Sequence record: PQ462667.1
Reading direction: 5' to 3' (one strand)
DNA from: Escherichia phage HMD-P3
Length of the DNA: 64,000 nucleotides
This document shows positions 1,638 to 39,988 of the stretch, in pieces (position 1 is the first letter of the stretch; each line of letters starts with the position of its first letter). A program made the position numbers and the translations under genes. Under the pieces are notes generated by a model. The model was not told where the DNA came from. It searched no databases and worked only from the letters and a program-made list of their open reading frames with translations.

Positions 1638-1726
1638 TGGCGGAAGAAGTGGGAATCGAACCCACAAGGCTATATTTCAAACCGACAGATTAGCAATCTG
1701 CTGCAATACCGTTATGCTATTCTTCC
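1638..1726 (-). tRNA. tRNA-Ser (anticodon GCT), type II with long variable arm
   Basis: Sense GGAAGAA...GCAGA-TTGCTAA-TCTGT, long variable arm GGTTTGAAATATAGCC, T-arm GTGGGTTCGATTCCCAC, acceptor TTCTTCC-G-CCA. Confidence 0.8.
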
Positions 1727-1747: not shown

Positions 1748-2317
1748 TTAGAAATTTAGCTTCATAGCAAGAAAATTTTTCAAGTTTTCGGTAGACATCT
1801 CATCCACATCTACAGGAGAAACAAATCCATTTAATTGTCTAGCAAACTTTTCACCAGCAGGATCGTTGTCCCCAACAGCTACTAATTTGAAAGGTAATAA
1901 TTTCAGTTGCTTTAATAACGCTTTTCCTGGAGAAGAACCCAGCATTGCCAGGGCTGGATAACCAGCATTATGTAATGCAACTGCCTTAAATACAGATTCA
2001 GCAATCAATACTACTTTTTCATCTCCATTGAGAGTTTCTAGTCCCCATACACACTGTGTAGTGGAGTAGGTAAAATATTTAGCCTCAAAGGGGCACTTAC
2101 CATGCCCTTTTGGAGCAGAAGGATTATACGTCTGATAGCCCCGCAACATCCCAGAGAAGTCATACAATGGGACTGTTAGCCACCCTTCCGGGCTTAACCA
2201 GCAATGATATTTATCTGTATCAAATCCTCTAGATAAGAGGTGCTGTGTTAGCTCATCAACATTCATATTTGGTTCCTCTCTCAAATTTATAGATATATTA
2301 TACAGAGAATTTAGCAT
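1748..2317 (-). CDS. Toprim-domain protein (189 aa)
   Basis: C-terminal half VVLIAESVFKAVALHNAGYPALAMLGSSPG...KLVAVGDNDPAGEKFA matches the Toprim E...DxD pattern of DnaG-type primases; no zinc-binding or helicase-interaction region. Confidence 0.55.
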   Translation of the reverse strand: MLNSLYNISINLREEPNMNVDELTQHLLSRGFDTDKYHCWLSPEGWLTVPLYDFSGMLRGYQTYNPSAPKGHGKCPFEAKYFTYSTTQCVWGLETLNGDEKVVLIAESVFKAVALHNAGYPALAMLGSSPGKALLKQLKLLPFKLVAVGDNDPAGEKFARQLNGFVSPVDVDEMSTENLKNFLAMKLNF

Positions 2318-2340
2318 TCAAGCAATCAAATTTTTTAACT
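2283..2340 (-). promoter_or_regulatory. T5-type early promoter (minus strand)
   Basis: Reverse complement carries the recurring ...tttgattgcttgaatgctaaattctctgtataatatatctataaattt... architecture shared with about 10 other intergenic copies. Confidence 0.55.
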
Positions 2341-2441
2341 TTTTAGAGGAAAATCATAGGGCACTTAAGGGTAGCAGATAAGTGGTGAGGACCAAAATTT
2401 GTGACTCCACTAAAAATCCGGGGGCAATTTTTAAAGACCCC

Positions 2442-2470
2442 TTGACATTTTTGTTGGGGTAGTGTAAAGT
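2442..2470 (+). promoter_or_regulatory. sigma70-type promoter (TTGACA, 17-bp spacer, TG-extended TAAAGT)
   Basis: cTTGACAtttttgttggggtagTGTAAAGTat directly upstream of the plus-strand cassette; differs from the T5 early promoter family used elsewhere. Confidence 0.55.
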
Positions 2471-2532
2471 ATATGTTATGGATGAGTGATCAAAGAGACA
2501 CACATTTTCTATATACTAGGAGGTGTCAAAAA

Positions 2533-3525
2533 ATGACAGAAGAAGTAGCTAAGAGTCCTGAGACCGTCGCTAGCGTTGCAGCAGAACTGCACCGTCACGA
2601 GGAATCAGATAAGAAAAAGTGGGAGAAGGTCAGAGCCTACGAAGAAAAACATCGTGAACACGATGAAGATGATGAAGAAGATGACGATGATGAACATTGT
2701 CATAAATATGGAAAACATAAAATGCAAGAACCAGTAAACGTATTCACTAGTGGCTTCCCTGGCCTAATGGGCGGTTACCCAGCAAACGCAGGTGCTTTTG
2801 GTGGTGAAGGTATGGGTCTATTCGGAGCTATCCTAATCGGTGCTCTATTAACAGGCGGATTCGGTGGTTTCGGTGGATTCGGTGGACGTGGTGTAGTTGG
2901 TGATGGTAGCGCAGTTGATGCAGTGCTTCAGAATCAAGATACCGCTAGTATTCTAGCAGCTATTAACACTACTCGTACAGAAGCTAATCAGGGTACTGGA
3001 GCTGTTTTAAGCGCAGTTAATAATGGTTTTAGCCAGACATCCCAAAACCAGAGCCGTGATACTCAGTCTGTACTAACTACGATCTATGGTACGGGTGCTA
3101 ATCTGTCTAATCAAATCTGCCAGGAAACTCGCAACGTTATTCAGGGTCAGTTCGATCTTTCTCGCCAGATTGATCAATCTTTCGCAGCTAACCAGATAGC
3201 TCGTGCACAAGATAAGTTTGATTCTGCACAGATCGCTTTCCAGCAGACTTTACAAACTAATAACCAGTTTGCAGCTGTTCAGGCTCAGATGTGTGCTAAC
3301 CAGAACTCTCTGGAACGTCAGATCGCTGAATGTTGCTGTGAACTTCAGACTGCGATCGCTGGTGTAACTACTGCACGTATCCAGGACGAGTTAGACGCAT
3401 GTCGCCTACGTGAAGCAATCGCTGCGGGTAGTGGTGCTAACGGTCAGGTAATTAATCAAATCGCTTTAAGTCTTGGTGCTATCACTCAGACTCTGGCTGG
3501 TCTGCAGGCTAAACTGCCGGCTTAA
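2533..3525 (+). CDS. low-complexity protein: acidic/His-rich N-terminus, glycine-zipper hydrophobic segment, Q/N/A-rich C-terminal domain (about 330 aa from the RBS-supported start)
   Basis: Strong RBS (AGGAGG) 7 nt before ATG at 2533 (the track ORF begins at 2473 without an RBS); segment GLFGAILIGALLTGGFGGFGGFGGRG; CCC and further Cys in the C-terminal part. Confidence 0.55.
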   Translation: MTEEVAKSPETVASVAAELHRHEESDKKKWEKVRAYEEKHREHDEDDEEDDDDEHCHKYGKHKMQEPVNVFTSGFPGLMGGYPANAGAFGGEGMGLFGAILIGALLTGGFGGFGGFGGRGVVGDGSAVDAVLQNQDTASILAAINTTRTEANQGTGAVLSAVNNGFSQTSQNQSRDTQSVLTTIYGTGANLSNQICQETRNVIQGQFDLSRQIDQSFAANQIARAQDKFDSAQIAFQQTLQTNNQFAAVQAQMCANQNSLERQIAECCCELQTAIAGVTTARIQDELDACRLREAIAAGSGANGQVINQIALSLGAITQTLAGLQAKLPA

Positions 3526-3546
3526 TATTAAGGGGAGGAGCCCATT

Positions 3547-3963
3547 ATGAGTAAATATGGTTTTGTAAATAACGGACTTAATCAAAGTATGGGCTCCCAG
3601 CAGCCCATTCCAGGTCTGGATAACCCCTACTTACAACAGTTGCAACAGCGTTTAGCAGAAGCGCAACAGATGCAGCAACAACTCCAGCAAAATCCTAGAA
3701 GTGTGAGTCCTATACAAATGATGCAGCAAATGAGCGGGCAGTCGCAAATGCCTCAACAAATGCAGCAACAGATGCCGCAGCAGCAAGTTCAGCAACAAAC
3801 CCAACAACCGCAGGTTTCTGCGGAAGGACAGGCAGTACTAGCCCTTTTCGAAGACTTCGCAAAGACAGAGGATGGGAAGCAGCTTGTATCACTTATGGGT
3901 AAGTTTAATAGCTTCTGCCAAAGCCAAATTGCAAAAGCTCAAAATAGCGGTGATAACTCCTAA
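3547..3963 (+). CDS. glutamine-rich low-complexity protein (138 aa)
   Basis: RBS GGGGAGG upstream; about 35% Q in the central region (QQMQQQLQQ..., PQQMQQQMPQQQVQQQTQQPQ). Confidence 0.5.
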   Translation: MSKYGFVNNGLNQSMGSQQPIPGLDNPYLQQLQQRLAEAQQMQQQLQQNPRSVSPIQMMQQMSGQSQMPQQMQQQMPQQQVQQQTQQPQVSAEGQAVLALFEDFAKTEDGKQLVSLMGKFNSFCQSQIAKAQNSGDNS

Positions 3964-3972
3964 GGAGGAATT

Positions 3973-4167
3973 ATGTGTTGCAGAAAATCTGTTTCGTGCT
4001 GCCCAATGCCTGTAGCACGTTGTTGCTCTCCAGCAATGTTTACGCAAATACCGGCGTTCAATCCGTTTGCCTTTAAGCCTACTCTTATCCTGCCCCCTAG
4101 AGTAGATTTTCAGTCAAGATTGGCCTCCCGTATGGGTGGTTGCTGTACACCGAGAGTGTGGTTCTAA
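3973..4167 (+). CDS. small cysteine-pair-rich protein (64 aa)
   Basis: RBS AAGGAGG upstream; four CC dipeptides (MCC, SCC, RCC, GCC). Confidence 0.4.
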   Translation: MCCRKSVSCCPMPVARCCSPAMFTQIPAFNPFAFKPTLILPPRVDFQSRLASRMGGCCTPRVWF

Positions 4168-4180
4168 ACCAAAAAACAAA

Positions 4181-4215
4181 AGCCCCTGCCGAAAGGTAAG
4201 GGGCTTTTTCTTTTG
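4181..4215 (+). terminator. rho-independent terminator
   Basis: Stem agcccct/aggggct with 11-nt loop followed by tttttctttt. Confidence 0.65.
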
Positions 4216-4219
4216 CCTT

Positions 4220-4259
4220 AAATACAGAAAAGCCCGCGCTCTCAGAGGAAACGCGGGCT
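4220..4259 (-). terminator. rho-independent terminator for the SPFH gene
   Basis: Perfect 8-bp stem agcccgcg/cgcgggct; on the minus strand it is followed by a U-run (revcomp of acagaaa). Confidence 0.6.
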
Positions 4260-4283
4260 TGGTTAGAAGATTACGTGTAACTA

Positions 4284-5231
4284 TTACTTGTTACGCATAT
4301 CCATGATCATTTGACCATCGTAGCCAGTACCTACCACAGTCTGAGGCACACCACCTTGATACTTCTGAGCACGAATCATTTCAACTTCCAGTTGCTTCCA
4401 GCGAATCATCTCAGGAGTAATGGTACGTTGCAATGCGGCGTTAGCTTCAGCTTCTTTTTTAGCTGCGTACAGTTTAGCATCTGCGTCACGTTCATTAGCA
4501 ATAGCTTGGTTGTTGCGAGCTTCACGATCTGCTTCTGCTTGTTTAACTTTTTGCTGTGCTTCCTGTTCAACGCGGGCAAGTTCAGCTTTCGCAGCGTTAA
4601 CTTGCTCTTCACGAACTTTGGTATTCTGTACCTGTTCCATGATTACCGGTGGCAAAGTAATATCCTGAAGAAACACCTGCTTAACTGTGTAACCATATGG
4701 GCGTGCATACTCTTCAACTTCCTGTTGAATTGCAGTTTGCAATTGAGCCTGAATTTTAGCATCAAACAAATCTTGTGCTTTAGGTACAGACTTACCAAAC
4801 TCACGAATAGTAGACAGTAATTTTTCAGTTACATATTTGTCTAATGCTTGATCCTGGGTACCTGCATTAATACGGTTAATCGGTGCCTTAGAACCATCAA
4901 ACTGCAACATAACAGTCAGGTCAACAGTGGATTTAAACTTATCCTGACTAGGAACCTGAAGTTTATCTAATTTTAGAGCAATATCTTTAGTACTAAAAGT
5001 ATCGAAAGAAGCAAAAGGATTTACAATATGAAAGCCGGGTAATACTGGGCTAGGGTCAACTTTACCCAGGAAAGTCTGGGTTTTAACAGTACCGTCTTGG
5101 ACAACAGTATAAGAGTTAAGAGCCAGAACTAAACCTACCAAACCAACTGCAGCACCAATACCCCAACGTTTGATATTACGCATTAATTTTTGCTCATAAG
5201 TCAGTTCTTTAGTGTTTTTAGTAGCAAACAT
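4284..5231 (-). CDS. SPFH/band-7 (prohibitin/HflK/C-like) membrane protein
   Basis: N-terminal TM helix (WGIGAAVGLVGLVLAL), central SPFH-like region, C-terminal charged coiled coil (EQVNAAKAELARVEQEAQQKVKQAEADREARN...). Confidence 0.65.
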   Translation of the reverse strand: MFATKNTKELTYEQKLMRNIKRWGIGAAVGLVGLVLALNSYTVVQDGTVKTQTFLGKVDPSPVLPGFHIVNPFASFDTFSTKDIALKLDKLQVPSQDKFKSTVDLTVMLQFDGSKAPINRINAGTQDQALDKYVTEKLLSTIREFGKSVPKAQDLFDAKIQAQLQTAIQQEVEEYARPYGYTVKQVFLQDITLPPVIMEQVQNTKVREEQVNAAKAELARVEQEAQQKVKQAEADREARNNQAIANERDADAKLYAAKKEAEANAALQRTITPEMIRWKQLEVEMIRAQKYQGGVPQTVVGTGYDGQMIMDMRNK

Positions 5232-5265: not shown

Positions 5266-5340
5266 TGGCCGAGGTGACAGGATTCGAACCTGCATAAAGG
5301 AATTTAGAAGACTCCTGCCTCTCCCTTAGACTACACCTCG
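5266..5340 (-). tRNA. tRNA-Arg (anticodon TCT)
   Basis: Sense CGAGGTG...GGAGT-CTTCTAA-ATTCC...GCAGGTTCGAATCCTGT-CACCTCG-G-CCA; anticodon loop CUUCUAA. Confidence 0.8.
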
Positions 5341-5832
5341 TTTAAGTATTTTTAAGAACTCTCGTAAAAACTCTTAAAAATACAGACGATACCGGGAGAG
5401 TCATAAGTCTCACTCATTAAGTATTTCAAGACAAAATACGGTAACGTCTACTATTTTCCAGTTTAAGTCAGGGTGACTTAGTGGTTATGTCCTGCGGTAT
5501 ATTGAGGACTCGGTTAGGCTCGGGGTCATGACTTCCCGCCTTTTGCTGCTACTCAACAGGAGTTATCGCGAATTACCTGTGCTATTGTGCACCATTAGTG
5601 ACATCTCTCATGCCAGCATTTCCCACTTTGTGGATAGCTTGAAAAACTACTCCGATATGGAGAAAGAACTTCACTATCCTAGAATACCTTCTAAAGTTCT
5701 TCTTTAGCCTGGACATAGTTAAATCGTAATAAAACTATTCAGCAGACTGGTTGGTTAGTCTGGAACCAACTACCGCGTGGTTTAGGCAGTGCGCAACTAA
5801 CCTCGGAAGCTTTTACTTTAAAAGCATCAGTT

Positions 5833-5914
5833 ATCCAGTTCTTACCGACCATAGGATTCGAACCTACATCTTCCACCAGTTACGGCTTGATAATACCAAT
5901 TATACTAGGACGGC
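5833..5914 (-). tRNA. tRNA-like element (perfect T-arm, imperfect acceptor, anticodon arm not resolved)
   Basis: Sense contains GTAGGTTCGAATCCTAT and acceptor-like GCCGTCC/GGTCGGT with one mismatch; no clean cloverleaf by eye. Could be a divergent or degenerate tRNA. Confidence 0.4.
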
Positions 5915-6129
5915 AGTGTTACTACATAAGTGATTTCCACACCCCACTATTTATAAATTAGAGAAGAGTTTAGGGGAGAGGTTTCAGACGCCTCATTTTA
6001 CACGTTCTAGCCACTAACCGGGATTGCCGCCCCCTGTGTACTAGTTTTACAACTAACCCACCGACTCTATTCAATGCGCTTCGGTTGGGATTATGCATTC
6101 AGCGTAATCGGCTCGCTGTTCCCTAATTT

Positions 6130-6178: not shown

Positions 6179-6618
6179 TTAAATTCGCCAGCAATCTGAG
6201 CAGCAGTACCACCATCATAACGCCCAGGAAATTCTTCCTTAATCGCTTTCATCAGCATACCTTTTGTAATTCCAGGGTTTAGCTTAACTAATTCTGCAAA
6301 GTATTTACGAATCTCAGTATCAGATAACTGAGGAGGCAGATACTCCTGCAACCACTTATTTAGAATGTATTCATACTGAGCAGACTGCAAGCTATAGCTA
6401 TCAAGATCTTGACCATGAAGTTTAGCTTTCATCTGGTTAATGCTTTTTAGTTGAGCTTTGAGATAAGACACAAATTGTTCAGAAGTGATGAAATCTTTAT
6501 CAATACGCTGAAGATCCCCGATTATGGTCTGATAACTTTTAGCGACTTCTTTATCAGAACCATTAAACTTAGAATCCTGCAAAGCTCTACGCAAAACATC
6601 TAAAATATTCTCTTCCAT
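6175..6618 (-). CDS. GatB/YqeY-domain protein
   Basis: C-terminal YLPPQLSDTEIRKYFAELVKLNPGITKGMLMKAIKEEFPGRYDGGTAAQIAGEF matches the GatB/YqeY pattern. Confidence 0.6.
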   Translation of the reverse strand: MEENILDVLRRALQDSKFNGSDKEVAKSYQTIIGDLQRIDKDFITSEQFVSYLKAQLKSINQMKAKLHGQDLDSYSLQSAQYEYILNKWLQEYLPPQLSDTEIRKYFAELVKLNPGITKGMLMKAIKEEFPGRYDGGTAAQIAGEFN

Positions 6619-6788
6619 TATTTCATTCCTAGCGCTTGGTTAAAAGATTGTTCTGTCATAACTGCTGAGACTTTGGCGAAATCAAACTTTTTAGGGTTCG
6701 TAGTGATTTCAGCAACGTTAGAAGTTTTAACAGTTTTCGTAGTACGAATACCGCGAGTGTTAACACCAATAATTACAACTGATTTCAT
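6618..6788 (-). CDS. possible small ORF (56 aa), translationally coupled to the GatB/YqeY gene
   Basis: ATG preceded by GAGAGG; stop overlaps the downstream start (ATGAAATAATG); below the 60-aa track cutoff. Confidence 0.3.
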   Translation of the reverse strand: MKSVVIIGVNTRGIRTTKTVKTSNVAEITTNPKKFDFAKVSAVMTEQSFNQALGMK

Positions 6789-29866: not shown

Positions 29867-30830
29867 TGTAAAAGACTTTATTAAACGTTGTCAAGAAGCA
29901 TATTACCAGGGAATGTCTTTAATCTCTGACGAAGAATATGATCGTCTGATTAAAAGATTTCCGTTAGAAGAAGAGATCGGGCCTAAGGGTGATATTCCAC
30001 ATCTGTATCGTATGTATTCTTTACAGAAAGTTTATTATAATCGTGGAGATAAACCTCCGTTTAACCCATTAGGTCAGGTAGAAACTGATAAGTTAGATGG
30101 TTGTGCGATTTCTCTGTTATATATTAATGGCGAATTTGTTCAAGCACTAACTCGTGGTAATGGTATTCTAGGGAACGATGTCACAAGCAACGTAAGATTG
30201 CTGAACATTCCTAAAAAGATTTCCCAAAAAGTACCTACTCAAATCACTGGTGAAGTTCTAATTACAAAAGAAGTAGAAAATAAACGTAACTTTGCCTCTG
30301 GTGCTATTAACCTCAAAGATAGTGATGATTTCGTACAGCGTATCGGAGAAGGTGGTTTAATCTTCGTTGCATACGGTATCCAGTGTTCTGGTGAATCTGT
30401 AGGTATTACAGAAACGTATTTAAAAGATATGCTTTGGCTAGAGAATGAGAACTTCTTAACAGTTGTTAATGTGCGTTCCTTCTTTAAGTGGATTCCAACG
30501 GATGGTAAAGTTGTTCGTATTAATGACAACAACAAATTCTTCCGAGAAGGCTGGACTAATAAATTTCCTCGTGGAGCATTCGCTATTAAAGAGGATGAAG
30601 AAGGTGAGATTACTACTCTTACTAAAGTTGAATGGCAGGTAGGGGCTTCTGGTAAAGTAACTCCAGTTGGTTATTTCGAACCGGTAATTATTGATGATGC
30701 TACAATTGTTAAGGCGACTCTTAATAACGTTGATTATATTAACTCTCTCGATCTAGAGATCGGTTGCCAGATTCGAGTAATTCGTGCTGGTGGTGTAATC
30801 CCGTGCATAGTAGAGCGAGTATACGATTAA
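29859..30830 (+). CDS. ligA: NAD-dependent DNA ligase, N-terminal fragment (adenylation + OB domains)
   Basis: EEYDRLIKRF, adenylation lysine motif KLDGCAISLLY, TRGNGILGNDVTSNV and an OB-domain tail align to bacterial LigA. Confidence 0.85.
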   Translation: MTNVKDFIKRCQEAYYQGMSLISDEEYDRLIKRFPLEEEIGPKGDIPHLYRMYSLQKVYYNRGDKPPFNPLGQVETDKLDGCAISLLYINGEFVQALTRGNGILGNDVTSNVRLLNIPKKISQKVPTQITGEVLITKEVENKRNFASGAINLKDSDDFVQRIGEGGLIFVAYGIQCSGESVGITETYLKDMLWLENENFLTVVNVRSFFKWIPTDGKVVRINDNNKFFREGWTNKFPRGAFAIKEDEEGEITTLTKVEWQVGASGKVTPVGYFEPVIIDDATIVKATLNNVDYINSLDLEIGCQIRVIRAGGVIPCIVERVYD

Positions 30831-31029
30831 TACATAACCCTTTGCTACCCATCTACCATATCGGAATTATAAAGTGGTTATTGACATTTTCGCCGCTTAG
30901 GTATATACTATTATCATTCAGTTGAGGGATAGAAAGTTATGGCGAGGGTAAGCAAAGTTAGTTAAAATTGTAGTTGCTAAATGCTTAAATACTTGCTATA
31001 ATATTTATATAAATTGATAAGGAAGAAAT

Positions 31030-31812
31030 TTGATGAAAATCGAAATTCCAATACAATGTCCCTCTTGTGGTTCTAAGCTAGATCTTGTCAACGGACAATT
31101 ATTCTGTCGGAATAAGTCCAACTGTCCAGCGCAATCAAGTAAGTTAATTGAGAACTTCTGTACAAAAATGAAGTTAAAGGGCTTTGGCCCAAAAACTATT
31201 GAGAAGCTGGAGCTGACGAAGATTTCAGAACTATTCTACCTAACCGAAGAAGATTTGGTTAGAGCCGTGGGTAGCAAGGTTGCCGCTAAATTAATTAGCG
31301 AATTAAATACTAAAGTTCGCGGAGACATTGACTTTGGTTCAGTTCTCGGTTCTTTAGGAATCCCTCTAATTGGAGAGGTTGCAGCAAAGAAATTATCCCA
31401 AAATTGCACTAGCTTCCACGATGTGAAGGCTGACGGCAAGGCTGGAGAAAACTATAAAACCTGGCTAAATTCCCCACAAGGCAAGGATGTTATTGAATTA
31501 CCGTGGAAATTCTCAACTGGTATCAGAGGTGCAAAAGCTAATATTATCATTACAGATGAATTAGTTGCCCAGCCAAACGGAATCGCGGTATGTATTACCG
31601 GATCTTTGCAAGATTTTGCAAATCGAACGGATGCAACAAACTATTTAGAAAGTCTAGGATATACGGTTAAGAAATCCGTTACCAAAGACGTCAAATACCT
31701 AATCTGTGAGGATGAATCAAAACGTTCTTCCTCATCTTATAAGAAAGCCGAAACGAATGGGATAGAAATCCTGTCGATTAAAGAACTATTGGAGAAAAAT
31801 AATAATGTCTAA
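31030..31812 (+). CDS. ligB: NAD-dependent DNA ligase, C-terminal fragment (Zn finger, HhH, BRCT)
   Basis: CPSCGSKLDLVNGQLFCRNKSNCPAQ (LigA Cys4 zinc finger), helix-hairpin-helix segment, BRCT-like ICITGSL...; separated from the N-fragment by a 199-bp gap carrying promoters. Confidence 0.85.
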   Translation: MMKIEIPIQCPSCGSKLDLVNGQLFCRNKSNCPAQSSKLIENFCTKMKLKGFGPKTIEKLELTKISELFYLTEEDLVRAVGSKVAAKLISELNTKVRGDIDFGSVLGSLGIPLIGEVAAKKLSQNCTSFHDVKADGKAGENYKTWLNSPQGKDVIELPWKFSTGIRGAKANIIITDELVAQPNGIAVCITGSLQDFANRTDATNYLESLGYTVKKSVTKDVKYLICEDESKRSSSSYKKAETNGIEILSIKELLEKNNNV

Positions 31813-32572
31813 ACTGAACTGGAACGTAGAAGGTGTAACCGAGTCTCTGAAAGCAAAAGCCACTGCTCTGGGTGTTGCTGTAATCTCTCAAGAACAAGTA
31901 GCTGCTATCGCTGCTGAACTGGCTGCTGAAACTGGCAAAGACGTTACAGCTCGCTCTGTCGGCTCTAAACTGCGTAAAGAAGGTTTTGAAGTACAGAAAG
32001 CTAACGAAGTACAGAAATCCCCGTGGACTCCTGAGCAGGAAGCTGAACTGGTTGATTTCCTGAACGCTCATGCTGGTCAGTACACCTATGCTGAAATCGC
32101 TGCTGCTGTAGCTGGTGGTCAGTTCGGTGCTAAACAGGTACAGGGTAAGATCCTGAGTCTGGAAATGACCGCTTCTGTTAAGCCAACCGAAAAAGCTGCT
32201 GCTGTTCGTTCCTTTACTCCAGATGAAGAAACTGATTTTGTTAATCAGGTTGTTGCTGGTGCTACTATTGAAGCTATCGCTGCTCACTTCGGTCGTAATA
32301 TCAAGCAGATCCGTGGTAAAGCTCTGAGCCTGCTTCGTGAAGGTCGTATCGCTGCTATGCCGGTACAGGAAACTTCAAGTGCTAAAACTCGTGAAGATCT
32401 GTTAGAAGGTCTGGATCTGGTTAACATGACTGTTGCTGAGATCGCTGAGAAAACTGGTAAGTCTGAGCGCGGTGTTAAATCTATGCTGTCTCGTCGTGGT
32501 CTGGTTGCTAAGGACTATGATGGTGCCGCTAAGCGTGCTAAACTGGATGCAAAAGCTGCGGCTGCTGAATAA
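31805..32572 (+). CDS. protein with three tandem ~50-aa alpha-helical repeats
   Basis: Three repeats of the form (T)PE/DE..E.V.F.N...G.T..EIAA..G.....V.GK.LSL...; the third continues ...MTVAEIAEKTGKSERGVKSMLSRRGL (HTH/SAP-like); terminator downstream. Confidence 0.55.
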   Translation: MSKLNWNVEGVTESLKAKATALGVAVISQEQVAAIAAELAAETGKDVTARSVGSKLRKEGFEVQKANEVQKSPWTPEQEAELVDFLNAHAGQYTYAEIAAAVAGGQFGAKQVQGKILSLEMTASVKPTEKAAAVRSFTPDEETDFVNQVVAGATIEAIAAHFGRNIKQIRGKALSLLREGRIAAMPVQETSSAKTREDLLEGLDLVNMTVAEIAEKTGKSERGVKSMLSRRGLVAKDYDGAAKRAKLDAKAAAAE

Positions 32573-32588
32573 TCTGGTAAATTAAACC

Positions 32589-32622
32589 TAAGGGGAGGGG
32601 GCTATGCTCCTTCCCCTTTTTG
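32589..32622 (+). terminator. rho-independent terminator
   Basis: aaggggagggggctatgctccttcccctttttg: G/C-rich stem with T-run; the track ORF start at 32604 lies inside it. Confidence 0.6.
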
Positions 32623-32654
32623 CATTTAGAAGGCACGAAAGCGTGCAAAGGAGA

Positions 32655-34127
32655 ATGACCTTGTTTAACGTGCAAGCTGTAGTGTTGAAGATGCTTCTCG
32701 CTTCTGAACAGAAGCAAATAGCATTGGAAACATTCTCAAAACTGCATAAAGATCATTTTAATGACGCTTTCTCCTCAATTTACCAAGCCGTCCAGAATTA
32801 TTATAAAAAATATAACACAATGCCGTCCATTGACGCACTTATGCTTGAAGCTAATAGGAACGCCCGCCTTTCTCAAGCTCTAGTCGTCTTAGCTAACACT
32901 CAAATTCCAGAAGTGAGCATGGAACAGGCACTTGAAGTCCTAGAGGCTGAATATACACAGGATTTATTCCTGAAGCTTCTAGAAACAGACGTGCTTCAAG
33001 ATTTAACAATGCTGGATCAGGGAGAAATTCTCAACCGAGTTGCCTCCCTTCACTTAAAATTAGAAGAGAAAGTAACGAATACTGGAAAAGTATTCAACGC
33101 AGATAACATGCGTATTTTCCAGAGAGAAGAAGATACCAAACTGAACTTAATCGCTCTTGGTATTTGTAATGAGTTCGACGCTCAAATTGGTTTAGCTCGC
33201 ACAGAAACGTTACTGCTTGGTGGTTGGCGTGGTACTGGTAAATCCATTATCTGTTCAAACATACAGGTTCAGCAATATTTGAATGGAGATATTGCTCCAT
33301 ACTTCTCAATTGAGATGAAAGAACATGAAGTATTTAGACGTAATCTAGCCATGTTAGCAGGTGTATCAGCACTAGCAATGCGTAATAATACTCTAGAAGG
33401 TGCAGCTCTGTTGAGATTAGCCAGAACTAGAGCTAGAATGTTTAATGGTGGTGAAGAGCTTTTTGATAACTTCGTTAAACAGTACACAATGGCTAAGATG
33501 AGTGATTTCTACGATATGGAGAGTAAGCTAATAGAAGGATATGAGCTACATACTCCTATGATTATTGTTTATGACCCTGAGCTGTCTATTACAACAGTTG
33601 ACGTAGAACTAAATAAATTAGTTGCTAGATATGGAGATAAAGTTACAGTAGCTTTACTGGACTATATTAACCAAACCCGACTTCCAGATTCTAAAACCAT
33701 TGATATGTATGACTGGAAAGAACAGATGGTTGTTAGCTCGTCTTTCAAATCTATCTGCCAGAAACATAACGTGGCTGGTGTAGCTCCTTACCAGATCGAT
33801 CAAGATGGTAGAACACGTATGTCAAAGGGGATTCTTGATTCCGCGGATATGGCTGCTAATCTTAATGCTGCAAAAGCTGATAATGGTCAAGGTGCTATTA
33901 TGTTTGACTTCGTTAAGACTCGTTCTTCTGATAGCGTGAAGTTTATGCCTAAGATGAACTGGGAAACTCTGCGAATGGATAACACTACCAACCTAGCAAT
34001 GGAAGACATATCTCAAATGGAAGCTGAGTTCGTTATCCCTATTGAGAAGGATAAGCCGGCTCAACCTAAACGTGCTAAGAAAGACAAAGCTGAAAATTCA
34101 ACAGGTGAACAGGCCAGCGATATATGA
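32655..34127 (+). CDS. DnaB-like / RecA-fold replicative helicase
   Basis: Walker A LLGGWRGTGKS and Walker B-like VALLDYINQ; start set to ATG 32655 (RBS AAGGAGA; a TTG at 32661 is an alternative) rather than the track start inside the terminator. Confidence 0.6.
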   Translation: MTLFNVQAVVLKMLLASEQKQIALETFSKLHKDHFNDAFSSIYQAVQNYYKKYNTMPSIDALMLEANRNARLSQALVVLANTQIPEVSMEQALEVLEAEYTQDLFLKLLETDVLQDLTMLDQGEILNRVASLHLKLEEKVTNTGKVFNADNMRIFQREEDTKLNLIALGICNEFDAQIGLARTETLLLGGWRGTGKSIICSNIQVQQYLNGDIAPYFSIEMKEHEVFRRNLAMLAGVSALAMRNNTLEGAALLRLARTRARMFNGGEELFDNFVKQYTMAKMSDFYDMESKLIEGYELHTPMIIVYDPELSITTVDVELNKLVARYGDKVTVALLDYINQTRLPDSKTIDMYDWKEQMVVSSSFKSICQKHNVAGVAPYQIDQDGRTRMSKGILDSADMAANLNAAKADNGQGAIMFDFVKTRSSDSVKFMPKMNWETLRMDNTTNLAMEDISQMEAEFVIPIEKDKPAQPKRAKKDKAENSTGEQASDI

Positions 34128-35014
34128 GTAGAATAACAGAACTACTTGATCTGAAAGGCATTGAATATAAAGACACAGGTGGGGACATCCTCATCTGTTG
34201 TCTCAATCCAGATCATGACGATAAACACCCAAGTTTGCGTATTGATCCTGAAACAGGTATTATGCACTGCTTGAGTTGTGGCTTCGGTAAAGGTATACCG
34301 AGCATTTACCATTATTTTAATGAGACTCAGTACCGACAGTCCCCAAGGCTATCGCAAGTACGCAAAAAGATTTCAGAGATTAGGAATGGATCAACGAATC
34401 TTGCAATTCCTGAATCTGCTTACCTTTTCGAAGGTGATTTCCGAGGTATAAGTTCTAAGACCTTGAAGAAATATTTTGCTTTCCAACACCAAGCAGACTG
34501 GGAAGGCAGAATTGTATTCCCAATCACAGATGCTGTTGGACGCAATATCCTATTTTTGGGTCGTTCTATAAACAGTTCTGCCCCTCCTAAATACTTAGTA
34601 AAACCAAAACAAGTTTCACCACCGATTTTCCCTGTACGATATAATACTCCAGTTCTTATTCTAGTTGAAGGTATCTTTGATATGCTGAACCTAGAGGATA
34701 ATGGTATAGACTATGCTTCTTGCTGCTTTGGTACACATCAGTTTACTTCGGATAACATTGCAGATAAGTTCAGTCCTTATATTATTGCGGGTGTAAAAGT
34801 TGTTGTTATCTTACTAGATAATGATGCTTCTGGTAATAAGGCTGCACAAGCATTGGCCAAATTAATTCGTACAAAAACGCGTTTAACACCTGTAGTGGCT
34901 AACTTTCTTCTGCCTGAGGGTAAAGATCCTGGTGAGTTAAACAAAGATGAAATTGATATGTTAGCAAAACGTATTGAAATTTTAGTTGCTGAATCGCTTA
35001 AAGATTTGGTATAA
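34124..35014 (+). CDS. DnaG-type DNA primase
   Basis: N-terminal zinc-binding CCLNPDHDDKHPSLRIDPETGIMHCLSCG; Toprim VLILVEG...VVILLDNDASGNKAA. Confidence 0.8.
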   Translation: MSRITELLDLKGIEYKDTGGDILICCLNPDHDDKHPSLRIDPETGIMHCLSCGFGKGIPSIYHYFNETQYRQSPRLSQVRKKISEIRNGSTNLAIPESAYLFEGDFRGISSKTLKKYFAFQHQADWEGRIVFPITDAVGRNILFLGRSINSSAPPKYLVKPKQVSPPIFPVRYNTPVLILVEGIFDMLNLEDNGIDYASCCFGTHQFTSDNIADKFSPYIIAGVKVVVILLDNDASGNKAAQALAKLIRTKTRLTPVVANFLLPEGKDPGELNKDEIDMLAKRIEILVAESLKDLV

Positions 35015-35076
35015 TATATTGGTAAGTTAGAGAAGAAACACTGAAGTTATACTTACTTACCAAGAGGAGATTAAAT

Positions 35077-37644
35077 TTGAAAATCGCAGTAGTTGATAAA
35101 GCTCTAAATAACACTCGTTACGATAAACATTTCCAGCTATACGGCGAGGAAGTTGATGTATTCCATATGTGTAACGAGAAGTTATCTGGTCGTTTGCTTA
35201 AAAAGCATATTACTATTGGAACACCAGAAAACCCATTCGATCCGAATGATTATGATTTTGTTATACTAGTAGGTGCTGAACCTTTCCTGTACTTTGCAGG
35301 TAAGAAAGGTATTGGTGACTATACTGGTAAACGTGTAGAGTATAATGGATATGCTAACTGGATTGCGAGTATCAGCCCAGCCCAGTTACACTTTAAGCCC
35401 GAAATGAAACCAGTTTTTGATGCAACAGTAGATAATATCCACGATATTATCAATGGTCGTGAGAAGATTGCAAAAGCTGGTGATTACCGTCCTATTACTG
35501 ACCCTGACGAGGCGGAAGAATATATCAAGATGGTGTATAATATGGTTATCGGACCTGTCGCATTCGACTCCGAAACCTCAGCACTATACTGTCGAGATGG
35601 TTATCTGCTTGGTGTTTCTATGTCTCACCAAGAGTATCAGGGTGTATATATCGATTCTGATTGTCTCACAGAGGTTGCAGTATATTATCTCCAGAAAATT
35701 CTGGATAGTGAAAACCACACTATTGTTTTTCACAACCTGAAGTTTGATATGCACTTTTATAAGTACCATCTGGGACTTACTTTTGATAAAGCACATAAAG
35801 AACGCAGGCTCCATGATACTATGTTGCAGCATTATGTCCTAGATGAGCGTCGTGGTACTCATGGCTTGAAATCTCTAGCAATGAAGTATACCGATATGGG
35901 TGACTATGACTTTGAACTAGATAAGTTCAAGGAGGATTACTGCAAAGCACATAAAATCAAGAAAGAAGATTTCACCTATGATTTAATTCCGTTTGATATT
36001 ATGTGGCCTTACGCTGCAAAAGATACCGATGCCACCATACGTTTACACAACTTCTTCTTACCAAAAATTGAGAAGAACGAAAAGCTTTGCAGTCTGTATT
36101 ATGATGTTTTGATGCCTGGTTGTGTATTTCTCCAGCGTGTTGAGGATCGTGGTGTACCTATTTCTATTGATCGTTTAAAAGAAGCTCAGTACCAGTTAAC
36201 TCATAATCTGAATAAAGCTCGTGAAAAGCTGTATACTTATCCAGAAGTAGTTCAGCTAGAGAAAGATCAGAATGAAGCGTTTAACCCAAACTCTGTTAAA
36301 CAACTCCGTGTTCTTCTGTTTGACTATGTTGGCTTAACTCCAACAGGTAAATTGACGGATACTGGAGCAGACTCTACAGATGCAGAAGCTCTGAACGAAT
36401 TGTCTACGCAGCATCCAATTGCTAAGACTCTACTAGAGATTCGTAAGCTGACTAAGCTGATCTCTACTTACGTTGAAAAAATTCTTCTGAGTATTGATGC
36501 AGATGGTTGCATTCGTACTGGTTTCCACGAACATATGACTACTTCTGGTCGTCTGAGTTCTTCTGGTAAACTGAACCTGCAACAGTTACCTCGTGATGAA
36601 TCTATTATCAAGGGCTGTGTAGTAGCTCCTCCTGGGTATCGTGTAATTGCTTGGGACTTAACAACTGCGGAAGTTTATTATGCTGCTGTTCTATCTGGGG
36701 ATAGAAATATGCAACAAGTATTTATCAACATGAGAAATGAACCTGATAAATACCCTGACTTCCACTCTAACATCGCACACATGGTATTTAAGCTCCAATG
36801 CGAGCCTCGTGATGTTAAAAAGTTATTCCCAGCTCTGCGTCAAGCAGCTAAAGCAATCACCTTTGGTATTCTGTATGGTTCTGGCCCAGCTAAAGTAGCT
36901 CATTCTGTTAACGAAGCTCTTCTGGAACAGGCTGGTAAGACAGGCGAACCGTTTGTAGAGTGTACTGTTGCAGATGCTAAAGAGTACATTGAAACTTACT
37001 TCGGTCAGTTCCCACAGCTTAAGCGTTGGATTGATAAGTGTCACGACCAGATCAAGAACCATGGATTTATCTATAGTCACTTTGGTCGTAAACGTCGTCT
37101 GCATAATATCCACTCCGAAGACCGTGGTGTTCAGGGTGAAGAAATCCGTTCTGGATTTAACGCAATCATTCAGTCTGCTTCTTCTGATAGTCTCCTTTTA
37201 GGTGCTGTAGATGCAGATAATGAGATCATTTCTCTTGGCCTAGAACAAGAGATGAAGATTGTTATGCTGGTTCATGACTCCGTAGTTGCTATTGTTCGTG
37301 AAGACTTGATCGACCAATACAATGAAATCCTGATTCGTAATATCCAAAAAGACCGTGGTATCAGTATTCCTGGCTGTCCGATTGGTATTGATTCTGATTC
37401 TGAAGCTGGAGGTTCTCGTGACTACTCTTGTGGTAAGATGAAGAAGCAACATCCATCAATCGCTTGTATTGATGATGATGAATATACTCGTTATGTTAAG
37501 GGTGTATTACTTGACGCAGAGTTCGAGTATAAGAAACTAGCTGCAATGGATAAAGAGCATCCAGATCATAGCAAATACAAGGATGATAAGTTTATTGCTG
37601 TATGTAAAGATTTGGATAACGTGAAAAGGATTCTCGGTGCTTGA
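35077..37644 (+). CDS. DNA polymerase, family A, with 3'-5' exonuclease domain
   Basis: 855 aa, matching the T5 DNA polymerase length; exonuclease motif VAFDSETSALY; C-terminal polymerase region with RQAAKAITFGILYGSG (motif B-like) and VMLVHDSVV (motif C). Confidence 0.9.
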   Translation: MKIAVVDKALNNTRYDKHFQLYGEEVDVFHMCNEKLSGRLLKKHITIGTPENPFDPNDYDFVILVGAEPFLYFAGKKGIGDYTGKRVEYNGYANWIASISPAQLHFKPEMKPVFDATVDNIHDIINGREKIAKAGDYRPITDPDEAEEYIKMVYNMVIGPVAFDSETSALYCRDGYLLGVSMSHQEYQGVYIDSDCLTEVAVYYLQKILDSENHTIVFHNLKFDMHFYKYHLGLTFDKAHKERRLHDTMLQHYVLDERRGTHGLKSLAMKYTDMGDYDFELDKFKEDYCKAHKIKKEDFTYDLIPFDIMWPYAAKDTDATIRLHNFFLPKIEKNEKLCSLYYDVLMPGCVFLQRVEDRGVPISIDRLKEAQYQLTHNLNKAREKLYTYPEVVQLEKDQNEAFNPNSVKQLRVLLFDYVGLTPTGKLTDTGADSTDAEALNELSTQHPIAKTLLEIRKLTKLISTYVEKILLSIDADGCIRTGFHEHMTTSGRLSSSGKLNLQQLPRDESIIKGCVVAPPGYRVIAWDLTTAEVYYAAVLSGDRNMQQVFINMRNEPDKYPDFHSNIAHMVFKLQCEPRDVKKLFPALRQAAKAITFGILYGSGPAKVAHSVNEALLEQAGKTGEPFVECTVADAKEYIETYFGQFPQLKRWIDKCHDQIKNHGFIYSHFGRKRRLHNIHSEDRGVQGEEIRSGFNAIIQSASSDSLLLGAVDADNEIISLGLEQEMKIVMLVHDSVVAIVREDLIDQYNEILIRNIQKDRGISIPGCPIGIDSDSEAGGSRDYSCGKMKKQHPSIACIDDDEYTRYVKGVLLDAEFEYKKLAAMDKEHPDHSKYKDDKFIAVCKDLDNVKRILGA

Positions 37645-38134
37645 TTTCAAATTGCCCGTATATGCTTTACGGGCGTTTGTATCAATTGAGCAGGAAGGTG
37701 ATTATTCCGTAATTACAACAAGATATAATAAATATGTGCTAGATAACAGGAAGTTGCCTGGCACTTTTTCTCAACGTAGACTTATTCTATTTGAGAAACG
37801 GAAAGAATTACCGTACAAGCTCTACCCTATTAGAGGTAGAATATCAATGTTGTCTCAATTAGTTGGGTCAAAGCGTAGCCAATTTATAGATTCTGATGGA
37901 AATCTTATTAACTGGAAGAAAACTACGTTCTATGATGTTGTCACCTCTAAAGTTTTGCATTCAGCTAGAATTTATAACGGAAAATACCAATGCTATGTAG
38001 CTAAAGTTCCATATCCATTTGTATTATCCTATGTTCCAGCTTATATAAGCTATATTCTGGTAAATAATAGCCCTGTTATTTATCAAGTCCATCAAGAGGA
38101 GCCTGAAATTCCTAGACTTAGAATAAAATTATGA
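37637..38134 (+). CDS. hypothetical protein with atypical codon usage (165 aa)
   Basis: Sits between polymerase and helicase with ATGA-type overlaps at both ends; rich in AGA/AGG/ATA/CTA codons that are rare in flanking genes. Confidence 0.45.
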   Translation: MLDFKLPVYALRAFVSIEQEGDYSVITTRYNKYVLDNRKLPGTFSQRRLILFEKRKELPYKLYPIRGRISMLSQLVGSKRSQFIDSDGNLINWKKTTFYDVVTSKVLHSARIYNGKYQCYVAKVPYPFVLSYVPAYISYILVNNSPVIYQVHQEEPEIPRLRIKL

Positions 38135-39483
38135 AGGTTGTTATATCTAATAAAGCCTATTTCAAGCCCGATGATGAACTTTGGGATTATTGTAGTAAAC
38201 AAACCACTTATCACATAGAGACAATGACTAGTAAATACCCTATTATGTATAAGAATAGTGGTGTTGTTGCCAAAGAGATTAAGTGGATTCCTATTACGCG
38301 TCTGGATTTACTAGATGCTAAAGGAGTAAAATACGAATTAGTCGATAAACGTACATTAGCTCCTGTAGATATACCAAAACCTAAGTTCAAGCTGCGTGAA
38401 GAAGATCAGCTTCCAATATACGAAGAATGCGATGATACCTGTATTATTAATGGTAAGCCTGGATTTGGTAAAACTATCCTAGCCCTTGCACTTGCGTATA
38501 AATTTGGCCAGAAAACTTTGGTAATTTGTACCAACACATCTATTCGTGAAATGTGGGCTGCAGAAGTTCGTAAATGGTTTGGGTTTGAACCGGGTATCAT
38601 AGGTTCTGGGAAATACAATATTGATCCACCAATTGTGGTCAGTAATATTCAAACAGTGAATAAACATGCGAATAATCTGTCTAAAGTATTCGGTACTGTT
38701 ATAGTTGATGAAGTTCACCATTGTGTGGCCACAACTTTCACTAACTTCCTAGAAATATCATGTGCTCGCTATAAGATTGGACTATCTGGAACATTAAAAC
38801 GTAAAGATGGTCTACAAGTTATGTTCAAAGATTTCTTTGGATATAAGGTCTTTAGCCCACCGGTTAATAATACTGTTGCACCTACAATCCATAGGTACTC
38901 CGTGCCTGTTGAGTTATCAGGAAACCAAAACGTACCGTGGGCATTACGTGCTAATGATGTGTACAACCATCCTGAATATCGAGAGACTATTATAAATCTA
39001 GCACATTTATACGTGAACATGGGACATAAAGTACTCATTGTAAGTGACAGAACAGAGTTAATCCAAACAGTACTAGAAGCTCTTGCACAGCGTGGTGTTA
39101 CAACATATGAAATTATAGGGGCAACCCACTTAGATGACCGATTAAAAATTCAGGAAGATATAGCAAAAGGTGGACCTTGTGTACTTGCAGCAGCTCAAAG
39201 TATCTTCTCTGAGGGTATTTCTCTAAATGAGTTGTCTTGTTTAATAATGGGAAGTCTCATTAATAATGAATCTCTCATTGAACAGCTTGCAGGACGTGTT
39301 CAACGTATTGTCGATGGTAAACTCGACCCTATTGTTGTAGATTTAATTATGAAAGGCGGCACTGGACTAAGACAGGCTTCTGGACGTATGGCAGTATATC
39401 GTAATAACGGGTGGAAAACTATTACTATGACTCCGGAGAAAGCAGTTCAATTAGCTAAAATTGCATTTGGCAACAGCTCATAA
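38131..39483 (+). CDS. SF2 DEAD/DEAH-box helicase (T5 D10-like)
   Basis: Walker A GKPGFGKT, DEVH box VIVDEVHHC, helicase C-terminal domain; 450 aa. Confidence 0.8.
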   Translation: MKVVISNKAYFKPDDELWDYCSKQTTYHIETMTSKYPIMYKNSGVVAKEIKWIPITRLDLLDAKGVKYELVDKRTLAPVDIPKPKFKLREEDQLPIYEECDDTCIINGKPGFGKTILALALAYKFGQKTLVICTNTSIREMWAAEVRKWFGFEPGIIGSGKYNIDPPIVVSNIQTVNKHANNLSKVFGTVIVDEVHHCVATTFTNFLEISCARYKIGLSGTLKRKDGLQVMFKDFFGYKVFSPPVNNTVAPTIHRYSVPVELSGNQNVPWALRANDVYNHPEYRETIINLAHLYVNMGHKVLIVSDRTELIQTVLEALAQRGVTTYEIIGATHLDDRLKIQEDIAKGGPCVLAAAQSIFSEGISLNELSCLIMGSLINNESLIEQLAGRVQRIVDGKLDPIVVDLIMKGGTGLRQASGRMAVYRNNGWKTITMTPEKAVQLAKIAFGNSS

Positions 39484-39703: not shown

Positions 39704-39988
39704 ATGCTTACAGAGCCTGATGCTCACCAATTATTGGTCGGTTCCTCATTCATTTTGAATGAATCAACAATAGTTGATAATCCAAATAAATTGTCTAATA
39801 GACAACTGGCAGAATATCTAGGAATTTTAAGTCTACGAAATTATGCCGAATACAAGTTTACAAACGATCCTAGTTTGGACATACAATATGTTCCAGTATG
39901 GATACCACGTTTAGTAATCGACACTAACCCACTAATCGCAATTAACAAATCGAAATTAATCTTTAAAGAGGAAATAAAATATGGCTAA
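39704..39988 (+). CDS. hypothetical protein (94 aa)
   Basis: ORF overlapping the next start. Confidence 0.4.
   Translation: MLTEPDAHQLLVGSSFILNESTIVDNPNKLSNRQLAEYLGILSLRNYAEYKFTNDPSLDIQYVPVWIPRLVIDTNPLIAINKSKLIFKEEIKYG

Follow-up and report, generated by a model that had tools for sequence, protein, structure and literature searches.

What is the function of three genes that lie in the tRNA/early part of T5-like phage genomes and run against the transcription of all their neighbours? We addressed this question in Escherichia phage HMD-P3 (sequence record PQ462667.1), in a stretch of 64,000 nucleotides (nt) that is called the window below and whose first letter is position 1. A preliminary description, drawn up from the letters alone, had singled out a plus-strand cassette of three low-complexity proteins, here named P1, P2 and P3. 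The analysis confirmed that positions 2426-4208 form a compact plus-strand unit that runs from a promoter through three genes, each with a strong ribosome-binding site, to a hairpin terminator. The three open reading frames (ORFs) lie exactly where they had been placed, and the surrounding toprim, SPFH and tRNA genes are all on the minus strand. The features of the unit are as follows (aa, amino acids; dN/dS and dS, ratio of nonsynonymous to synonymous substitution rates and synonymous rate).

2377-4200, no strand: block that is present or absent among relatives, approximate extent, set by the homology break in an Epseptimavirus (L004)
2426-2470, plus strand: promoter ('P12' in T5 and phage 5), with A/T tract TTTTTAAAG, -35, spacer and -10
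2476-2532, plus strand: 5' untranslated leader, containing the Shine-Dalgarno sequence AGGAGG at 2518-2523
2533-3525, plus strand: P1 (T5.077 homologue, 330 aa), an ORF that matches PHROG 8119 end to end (E 9e-206)
2815-2886, plus strand: P1 residues 95-118, GLFGAILIGALLTGGFGGFGGFGG, predicted membrane or fusion-peptide-like segment with a conserved Arg after it (hydropathy and alignment)
3331-3339, plus strand: P1 Cys267-Cys268-Cys269, in ECCCE 266-270, invariant in alignments A1, A2 and A4
3439-3513, plus strand: P1 residues 303-327, NGQVINQIA(L/V)SLGAITQTLAGLQAK, last helix, almost all columns invariant at 36-43% overall identity
3547-3963, plus strand: P2 (T5.078 homologue, 138 aa), an ORF matching PHROG 7894, dN/dS 0.20
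3973-4167, plus strand: P3 (T5.079 homologue, 64 aa), an ORF starting MCCRKSVSCCP
4078-4123, plus strand: nucleotide-invariant stretch in P3, 46 nt, no variable site in 10 phages
4178-4208, plus strand: intrinsic terminator of the operon, dG -21 kcal/mol, z -4.2, with an A-tract upstream and a T-tract downstream
4230-4260, minus strand: terminator of the convergent SPFH gene, found by scan, dG -19.9 kcal/mol, z -2.9

Several lines of sequence evidence show that all three ORFs are protein-coding genes under purifying selection. Pairwise dN/dS values among ten phages were 0.15 for P1, 0.20 for P2 and 0.29 for P3, and the variable sites of each gene concentrate at third codon positions. Length varies in frame, and only in two places, the P1 stretch rich in acidic residues and His and the P/Q-rich linker of P2. 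Of 223 phage records matching P3, 220 have it at full length, and most records leave it unannotated, a practical point for the annotation of these genomes. Two contigs of ~110 kb with a very divergent P1 (L006 and L007) have the same trio, again on the opposite strand from the flanking genes. There, a P1-like gene of 310 aa is accompanied by a P2-like gene of 106-107 aa, with a shorter linker and conserved ends, and by a 63-69-aa ORF in the place of P3, which starts with MCC and has a second Cys-Cys pair and is otherwise unalignable with P3.

The DNA of the window is, as judged by its matches, that of a T5-like phage. The 2-kb region of the cassette matched 396 phage records, nearly all of them T5-like phages of Salmonella and Escherichia; many T5-like phages match, the best with 97.8% nucleotide identity over 2 kb. 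Its position in annotated relatives is the tRNA/early part of Tequintavirus and Epseptimavirus genomes. Nucleotide and protein identity and the order of the genes, with the toprim gene (or nadR) on one side and the SPFH gene on the other, place it as the T5.077-T5.079 locus of these genera. The anatomy of the cassette is not new, having been annotated for about two decades without a function. The T5 record (NC_005859) lists promoter P12, T5.077, T5.078, T5.079 and an 'efficient bidirectional rho-independent transcription terminator'. The hand-annotated record of the tRNA gene region of bacteriophage 5 (AJ604531), a 96.8% match to the 2-kb region, gives 'promoter P12', 'ORF 327aa', 'ORF 138aa' and 'ORF 64aa' with their ribosome-binding sites, and the 'bidirectional transcription terminator ter1'. 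T5 has its three ORFs in the same layout as the window, and both phages agree with it in gene order, promoter, ribosome-binding sites and terminator; there is no structural difference, and P1 of the window differs by small in-frame insertions and deletions in the acidic/His-rich stretch. All three products are labelled 'hypothetical protein', and neither record gives a function. New here are the evidence that the genes are real, the limits of the block that is gained and lost, the exclusion of explanations by lysis or by a known family, and the kinship of P1 with the superfamily described below.

Single records carry annotations of another kind. Occasionally P2 is labelled 'cAMP-dependent protein kinase catalytic subunit', which none of the scans supported. 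In Salmonella phage INF11 (PV692321, L025), P1, P2 and P3 are all frameshifted and the annotation splits them; these frameshifts are most likely sequencing errors rather than decay.

The preliminary description had proposed a host-type sigma70 promoter with a TG extension, rather than a T5-type one. A promoter scan found the -35 hexamer TTGACA (2442-2447), a 17-nt spacer and the -10 hexamer TAAAGT (2465-2470), with 10 of 12 matches. This match alone proves nothing, because promoter-like matches are not enriched in the region over shuffled sequences (4 against 8.4, fewer than expected), and conservation is the deciding point. The -35, the -10 (GTAAAGT or GTAGAGT) and the upstream TTTTAAAG tract are positionally kept in L006 and L007, where P1 is only 36-43% identical and the remainder of the leader has diverged. 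Conservation at this distance shows a putative sigma70-type promoter of the cassette's own, from which it would be transcribed against the flow of the tRNA/early genes. The TG extension did not survive inspection: the TG abuts the hexamer (GTG-TAAAGT), which is not the canonical register, and the scan reports none. The distinction between host type and T5 type holds for the hexamers, which differ from the TTGCTw -35 and TATAATA of T5-like promoters; it does not extend to the polymerase, since T5-like promoters are also recognised by the host sigma70 RNA polymerase (PMC3326045). A 49-aa ORF on the minus strand (2354-2503), given as a coding sequence in some records (e.g. MM-1 CDS0101), overlaps promoter P12 and is probably spurious.

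Read from the sequence, the ribosome-binding sites are AGGAGG (2518-2523), GGAGGA (3534-3539) and AAGGAGG (3962-3968), so that each ORF has a Shine-Dalgarno sequence 4-9 nt upstream, as had been claimed. The hairpin terminator back-to-back with that of the SPFH gene was found as well, as hairpins 4178-4208 (plus strand) and 4230-4260 (minus strand). Compared with T5, the plus-strand hairpin has compensatory stem changes, with both sides altered and the pairing kept. Within 4236-4240, inside the minus-strand hairpin, the sequence GCGC (4236-4239) aligns with the annotated 'major DNA single-chain interruption' of T5, which lies at 39746-39747, ~32.6% of the 121,750-bp record, and has the consensus Pu-pGCGC. 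The cassette therefore ends beside one fixed nick of T5 virion DNA.

Two stretches of the operon are conserved beyond what their surroundings would suggest. The leader has an identity of 0.99 over 2466-2525 in the 10 phages, where coding regions are ~80-90% identical. In P3, third positions vary at 22%, compared with 61% in P1, and between the window and more divergent relatives dS reaches 0.5-0.7 in P1 and never exceeds ~0.2 in P3. The frozen zone extends over 4021-4140 and is strictest at 4078-4123, which holds a 7-bp inverted repeat, CTACTCT-N13-AGAGTAG. Phage MSP1 has lost the cassette apart from 4066-4212. Predicted folds were not significant for the leader (z -0.7) or for an RNA element in P3, and in Rfam neither had a match near any gathering score, terminator look-alikes apart. 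The near-invariance of 2466-2525 and the invariance of 4078-4123 hint at nucleotide-level functions. The leader could be an operator or a translational control site, and the P3 stretch may possibly have a second function at the nucleotide level.

The neighbourhood of the cassette consists of minus-strand features, which also include a tRNA-Leu gene.

1638-1726, minus strand: tRNA-Ser
1748-2317, minus strand: toprim-only 'primase' (toprim/primase-like) gene, from the ORF list and domain scan
4284-5231, minus strand: SPFH/Band 7 gene, from the ORF list and domain scan
5266-5340, minus strand: tRNA-Arg

Presence and absence among T5-like genomes show that the block is gained and lost as one unit, and that it is a self-contained accessory operon of Markadamsvirinae phages. 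The block is polymorphic, with conserved flanks: 217 of ~420 records matching the locus have it whole, and most others match the flanks only. In L004, one of several Epseptimaviruses that lack it, homology breaks off at ~2376, just ahead of the promoter, and picks up again at ~4201, at the end of the plus-strand terminator; nadR and pnuC fill the neighbouring space. Other Epseptimaviruses carry nadR/pnuC and the block together, KookSpook has different small genes to the left of the block, and in MSP1 an HNH endonuclease gene has come in, with P1, P2 and the 5' part of P3 gone. In Markadamsvirinae, the stretch from the toprim gene to the SPFH gene (2317-4284) is a hot-spot for cargo (L004, L005, L022, L023 and L029), containing the three-gene cassette, nadR plus pnuC, these two loads together, an HNH homing endonuclease, small ORFs of other kinds, or no cargo at all. 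In the Tequintavirus Bas33, which is without the block, the SPFH-sized and toprim-sized ORFs are only 288 nt apart. The T5 variant T5Mos is viable with a deletion of 30661-38625 (PMC11464382); assuming reference coordinates (P12 37954-38028, T5.077 38064-39029), this removes the promoter and more than half of T5.077, namely its 5' part. Bas33 without the block, and T5Mos viable after losing the promoter and most of T5.077, show that the cassette is dispensable for lytic growth in the laboratory. With its own promoter and terminator, three genes, natural plus and minus phages and viability when absent, the operon offers a clean experimental handle in a classical model phage, most of whose tRNA/early-region genes have no assigned role.

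The block has a G+C content of 45-47%, compared with 37-39% in its surroundings. Since the G+C at third codon positions of P1 (0.33) matches that of its neighbours (0.30-0.32), the difference probably reflects the Gly/Ala/Gln-rich composition of the proteins and gives no sign of recent foreign origin. Phage morons are independently transcribed accessory units, first described in lambdoid phages. The cassette had been called moron-like, and in an architectural sense this is borne out: it has its own conserved promoter and terminator, is inserted between genes of another transcription unit, comes and goes as a block between conserved flanks and beside a variable left neighbour in close relatives, and is dispensable. 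The carrier here differs in being strictly virulent, with no integrase or repressor context seen in annotated T5-like records. There is hence no prophage expression, and the likeness to morons is architectural only.

The composition ascribed to P1, with an acidic/His-rich N-terminus, a Gly-rich segment at 95-118, a Q/N-rich C-terminal region and CCC at 267-269, was found as described. The protein begins with a conserved helix (residues 12-44; predicted local distance difference test score, pLDDT, ~90 in the better AlphaFold2 model), followed by the variable acidic/His-rich stretch; residues 1-90 hold 23 Asp plus Glu and 7 His. A motif KMQEPVNVF precedes the Gly-rich hydrophobic segment, whose mean Kyte-Doolittle value is 2.07 over 15 residues and whose G and L positions are invariant in alignment A1. 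Averaged over 74 family members, Lys plus Arg number 0.26 in the 20 residues before the hydrophobic core and 1.05 in the 25 after it. Membrane targeting of P1, which had been suggested earlier, is plausible, and its basis is this one segment. The Pfam glycine-zipper families (Gly-zipper_Omp, Gly-zipper_YMGG and Rick_17kDa_Anti) gave no match even at E up to 1. The C-terminal 205 residues contain 46 Gln plus Asn, and a region of ~200 residues rich in N, Q, A, S and T has a hydrophobic periodicity of 3.65-3.75 (~3.67), nearer to hendecads than to heptads. AlphaFold2 monomer models built from 16 and 42 sequences are all-helical (mean pLDDT 48 and 61), with three long predicted helices at 135-172, 176-302 and 304-327. 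Conservation in P1 peaks at residues 303-327, a helix that is a candidate for binding a partner. Kinship with the membrane-remodelling proteins PspA, Vipp1 and ESCRT-III found no support: there was no Pfam match, Vipp1 appeared only at a Foldseek E of 7-9 with the low-confidence model, and the better model gave nothing.

The earlier statement that no family could be recognised stands for curated families. Scans of P1, P2, P3 and distant relatives with Pfam, NCBIfam and PADLOC returned noise only, PDB sequences searched with the P1 profile yielded no hit at E up to 1, and a profile search with the diverse alignment A2 retrieved mostly T5-like proteins and no named families; profile and structure searches of the kind suggested as a check (here Pfam, NCBIfam, PADLOC, PDB and Foldseek) found no homology to a characterised protein. 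A GTDB genome scan found no prophage copies, and the literature search yielded nothing relevant on T5.077-079 or their protein accessions. The statement does not hold beyond curated families, where P1 and P2 are members of PHROGs 8119 and 7894 and P1 has far wider kin. An exhaustive profile search retrieved 109 cluster representatives at E up to 0.001, and more distant proteins match two or three of PHROGs 8119, 9288 and 16490 at once. The triple cysteine stands in the context [RK]Q[ILM]A[ED]CCCE[LIV][KQ] in 111 of 140 retrieved relatives, usually followed by R-x-x-D-x-L (R[ILV].D.L); P1 conforms, with RQIAECCCELQTAIAG...RIQDELD. Judged by motif and profile, P1 belongs to a widespread and previously undescribed viral superfamily, for which we propose the name ECCCE-motif superfamily, with at least ~100 clusters at 50% identity; P1 is its best-sampled member. 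PHROGs keeps the three families apart, each under 'unknown function', and the shared motif and architecture are recorded in no searchable resource. The databases and literature searched held no curated family, solved structure or paper describing the motif.

A large subgroup of the superfamily follows the plan of P1 without the T5-specific N-domain: a short acidic N-tail, GG(I/L)GGLLIGALLFGGG..GGFGGRG, N/Q-rich helices and ECCCE, with Q..I(L/I)..L..P at the C-terminus. Other members are long, soluble, repeat-rich proteins without a hydrophobic segment. Crassvirus members are annotated as 'spike protein/glycoprotein' or 'outer capsid protein/viral fiber'; others occur in myovirus-like contigs of 50-60 kb, in Edwardsiella phage eiAU (eiAU-like siphoviruses), in Aeromonas phage phiWae15 and in viruses assigned to Methanomassiliicoccales. 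Among 25 non-identical IMG/VR loci, the CCC gene heads a string of genes for a ~97-aa beta-rich protein (21 of 25), a ~57-aa protein (14 of 25), a ~87-aa protein (14 of 25) and DUF7841 (10 of 25). This string often stands beside or between the crassvirus major capsid and auxiliary capsid genes (L046, L050, L055, L063, L066 and others). In crAss001, tblastn found no CCC homologue, and the CCC-headed module is missing. A family this common among crassviruses of the gut and other phages, with a triple cysteine that is absolutely conserved, merits a name and a structure.

P2 and P3 occur only with the Demerecviridae version of P1, and all three proteins retain conserved cysteines. P2 starts with a conserved helix and ends in a conserved C-terminal domain of ~45 aa with one invariant Cys, and the P/Q/M-rich linker between them varies in length; homologues range from 106 to 142 aa with both ends conserved, and a search with the C-terminal domain found no candidate. 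Its glutamine content had been put at ~35%, which was not reproduced: Gln makes up 27.5% of the protein overall and 42-48% in the central part only. P3 is basic (8 Lys plus Arg against 1 Asp plus Glu) and Pro/Phe-rich, and has the four Cys-Cys dipeptides reported earlier, at 2-3, 9-10, 17-18 and 57-58. Neither P2 nor P3 has a signal sequence. The suggestion that P3 is a modified peptide found no support, as no modifying enzyme lies in or beside the unit in any relative examined.

On these grounds, we tentatively favour, at somewhat less than even chances, the view that the operon encodes a dispensable helical assembly, anchored in the inner membrane and joined by two small partner proteins, that acts at the envelope of the infected cell. 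Any one specific activity, exclusion included, is unlikely. The mechanism can be put in five steps, in falling order of support. First, the Gly-rich hydrophobic segment (residues 95-118) would anchor P1 in, or insert it into, the inner membrane. Second, the N/Q-rich region of ~200 residues would form a long helical oligomer, with the invariant Cys-Cys-Cys as a thiol cluster at the helix interface; in a periplasmic domain the cluster might serve as an interchain disulfide staple, in a cytoplasmic one as a metal-thiolate or redox site. Third, P2 may be a flexible adaptor whose conserved C-terminal domain docks on the invariant C-terminal helix of P1. Fourth, P3, basic and with vicinal cysteines, might pair with the acidic, Cys-bearing P1. 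A partnership of the three proteins is suggested by the strict co-inheritance of their genes and by the best-conserved surfaces, which are the last P1 helix and the P2 C-domain. Fifth, once a cell is infected, the complex would alter its envelope, to the advantage of the phage under some conditions; the likeliest roles are exclusion of superinfecting phages or protection of the envelope, and the complex would not serve replication, assembly or lysis.

Virulent phages do carry non-essential genes for proteins that work at the envelope after infection, such as T5 Llp and T4 Imm and Sp. What the cassette would share with them is the proposed action at the envelope and an early-gene placement that fits early expression. 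They differ in being small lipoproteins or membrane proteins, with no sequence or architectural similarity, and the analogy is one of putative function only. If the envelope module is real, T5 biology would gain a role in exclusion or envelope protection that goes beyond the Llp lipoprotein.

As to the topology of P1, N-out/C-in is weakly favoured by its acidic N-flank and by the one conserved Arg that follows the hydrophobic segment. This topology would place the CCC domain, P2 and P3 all in the cytoplasm, a coherent arrangement that would argue for metal or redox chemistry over disulfides; the opposite topology would give a periplasm-spanning, disulfide-stapled rod.

Several observations weigh against an envelope assembly. 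The weakly favoured topology itself would put the CCC domain in the reducing cytoplasm and, in T5-like P1, demand export of a 90-residue acidic N-domain. Many superfamily members lack any hydrophobic segment, and membrane anchoring is therefore not the core property of the family. Crassvirus-like contigs carry the homologue in a module of head genes, which hints at a virion or assembly role there. The P1 models are of low to moderate confidence (pLDDT 48 and 61), and Foldseek searches against PDB and BFVD gave nothing better than E 3; we treat both as uninformative. For the three genes, the literature search found no experiment or expression results, and the single RNA-seq and proteome set located for a T5-like phage (PMC13250531) was made with Bas33, a phage without the cassette and with a regional deletion of 10 kb.

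One alternative is that P1 and its superfamily form oligomeric, Asn/Gln-lined alpha-helical tubes that cross the envelope, like protein H, the DNA pilot protein of phiX174 (Microviridae). Crassvirus-like phages would package such a protein for ejection, and the T5-like copy, made in the cell, would be a channel or plug. The resemblance is considerable: H has 328 aa and P1 330, each with a hydrophobic, Gly-rich segment towards the N-terminus, a long helical region rich in N and Q and probable oligomerisation, the periodicity of P1 is hendecad-like, and homologues adjoin the crassvirus major and auxiliary capsid genes and follow the tail genes in phage eiAU. Homology to H, however, was rejected, with an hhalign probability of 0.4-0.9%, below 1%, and no Pfam match, which leaves an architectural analogy. 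H is a virion protein without the CCC motif, whereas the T5-like P1 has this motif and an extra N-terminal domain of 90 residues, and is encoded, dispensably, in the tRNA/early region behind a sigma70-type promoter. To our knowledge, P1 is not among the published virion proteins of T5. The virion atlas of crAss001 mentions no such protein, and that phage has no homologue by tblastn; the same two observations led us to reject a head-fibre or virion role in crassviruses. We consider a conduit improbable. The same improbability attaches to its boldest form, in which the helix-embedded Cys-Cys-Cys would staple a membrane-inserting, Asn/Gln-lined helical oligomer, a tailed-phage analogue of the H conduit that crassviruses package and that T5-like phages have turned into an intracellular envelope device with two dedicated partners.

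The cysteines admit another explanation, in which the His/Asp/Glu-rich N-domain of P1, its CCC and the Cys pairs of P3 bind soft metal ions or buffer thiols during infection. Metal binding by vicinal Cys pairs and CCC motifs is known from ArsD and the N-terminus of ZntA. The conserved cysteines of all three proteins would fit such a module, as would the His runs that are expanded in some homologues (HHYHHHHHEH in P0003 and P0008) and the His-rich protein that follows the CCC gene in one lineage (eiAU gp09; L015 4346-4711). In L030 the CCC gene is followed by a gene (6179-6748) with a weak ferritin-like match (E 6e-4, below the cut-off). No part of P1, however, is less conserved than the His-rich stretch, which distant homologues do not have, distant P3 homologues retain two Cys pairs only, and no metal-binding family was matched, the ferritin-like match being sub-threshold. 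A metal or redox module is, for these reasons, no less improbable than the conduit. As a separate observation, the C-terminus of eiAU gp09 has a MazG-like motif, by reading of the sequence.

A role in counter-defence or host takeover appears a little more improbable still. Here the operon would inhibit or evade an immunity system, of the host or of a prophage, present in some hosts only. Its patchy distribution among close relatives, at a variable locus that also holds nadR/pnuC, is the typical pattern of arms-race accessory genes, and placement in the early region with a sigma70-type promoter suggests early expression. Highly acidic T5 proteins, moreover, trigger PARIS (PMC11464382). On the other side, the PADLOC models gave P1, P2 and P3 no match to known defence or anti-defence proteins, a long membrane-linked helical architecture is unusual for known inhibitors, and the purifying selection is strong and steady, not diversifying.

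An accessory part in lysis, with P1 resembling an i-spanin or regulating a holin and P3 as a small Cys-rich analogue of an o-spanin, is very improbable. As in the two-component spanins (lambda Rz/Rz1), a membrane-anchored helical, Cys-containing protein, with one hydrophobic segment before its long helical domain, would be combined with a small, Pro/Cys-rich product encoded nearby, and the homologue in crassvirus cr116_1 lies three genes after the holin and endolysin genes. P3, however, has no signal peptide or lipobox, the cassette stands in the tRNA/early region and not in a lysis cassette, and many fully lytic relatives lack it. In MM-1 the holin, the endolysin and two overlapping Rz-like spanin genes are annotated ~11-14 kb away. 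A spanin role was rejected on the missing lipobox of P3 and the Rz-like spanins elsewhere in T5-like phages. That the trio might be chance ORFs or decaying low-complexity sequence, as its composition, the want of a curated family match and the unannotated P3 of most records could suggest, is hardly credible and was ruled out by the selection analysis, with dN/dS of 0.15-0.29, third-position bias, in-frame indels, ORFs intact in ~220 records, and trio and promoter conserved in relatives of only 36-43% identity.

Two further elements lie in the flanks. An ~80-nt element at ~2262-2343, upstream of the toprim gene in the region of the annotated minus-strand promoter P15a, recurs in several copies in related loci with 76-94% identity, and by this recurrence it appears to be a repeated early-promoter cassette. 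Beside tRNA-Arg on the minus strand, at ~5341-6100, T5 and phage 5 annotate 'RNAX, stable RNA with unknown functions' (~720-785 nt).

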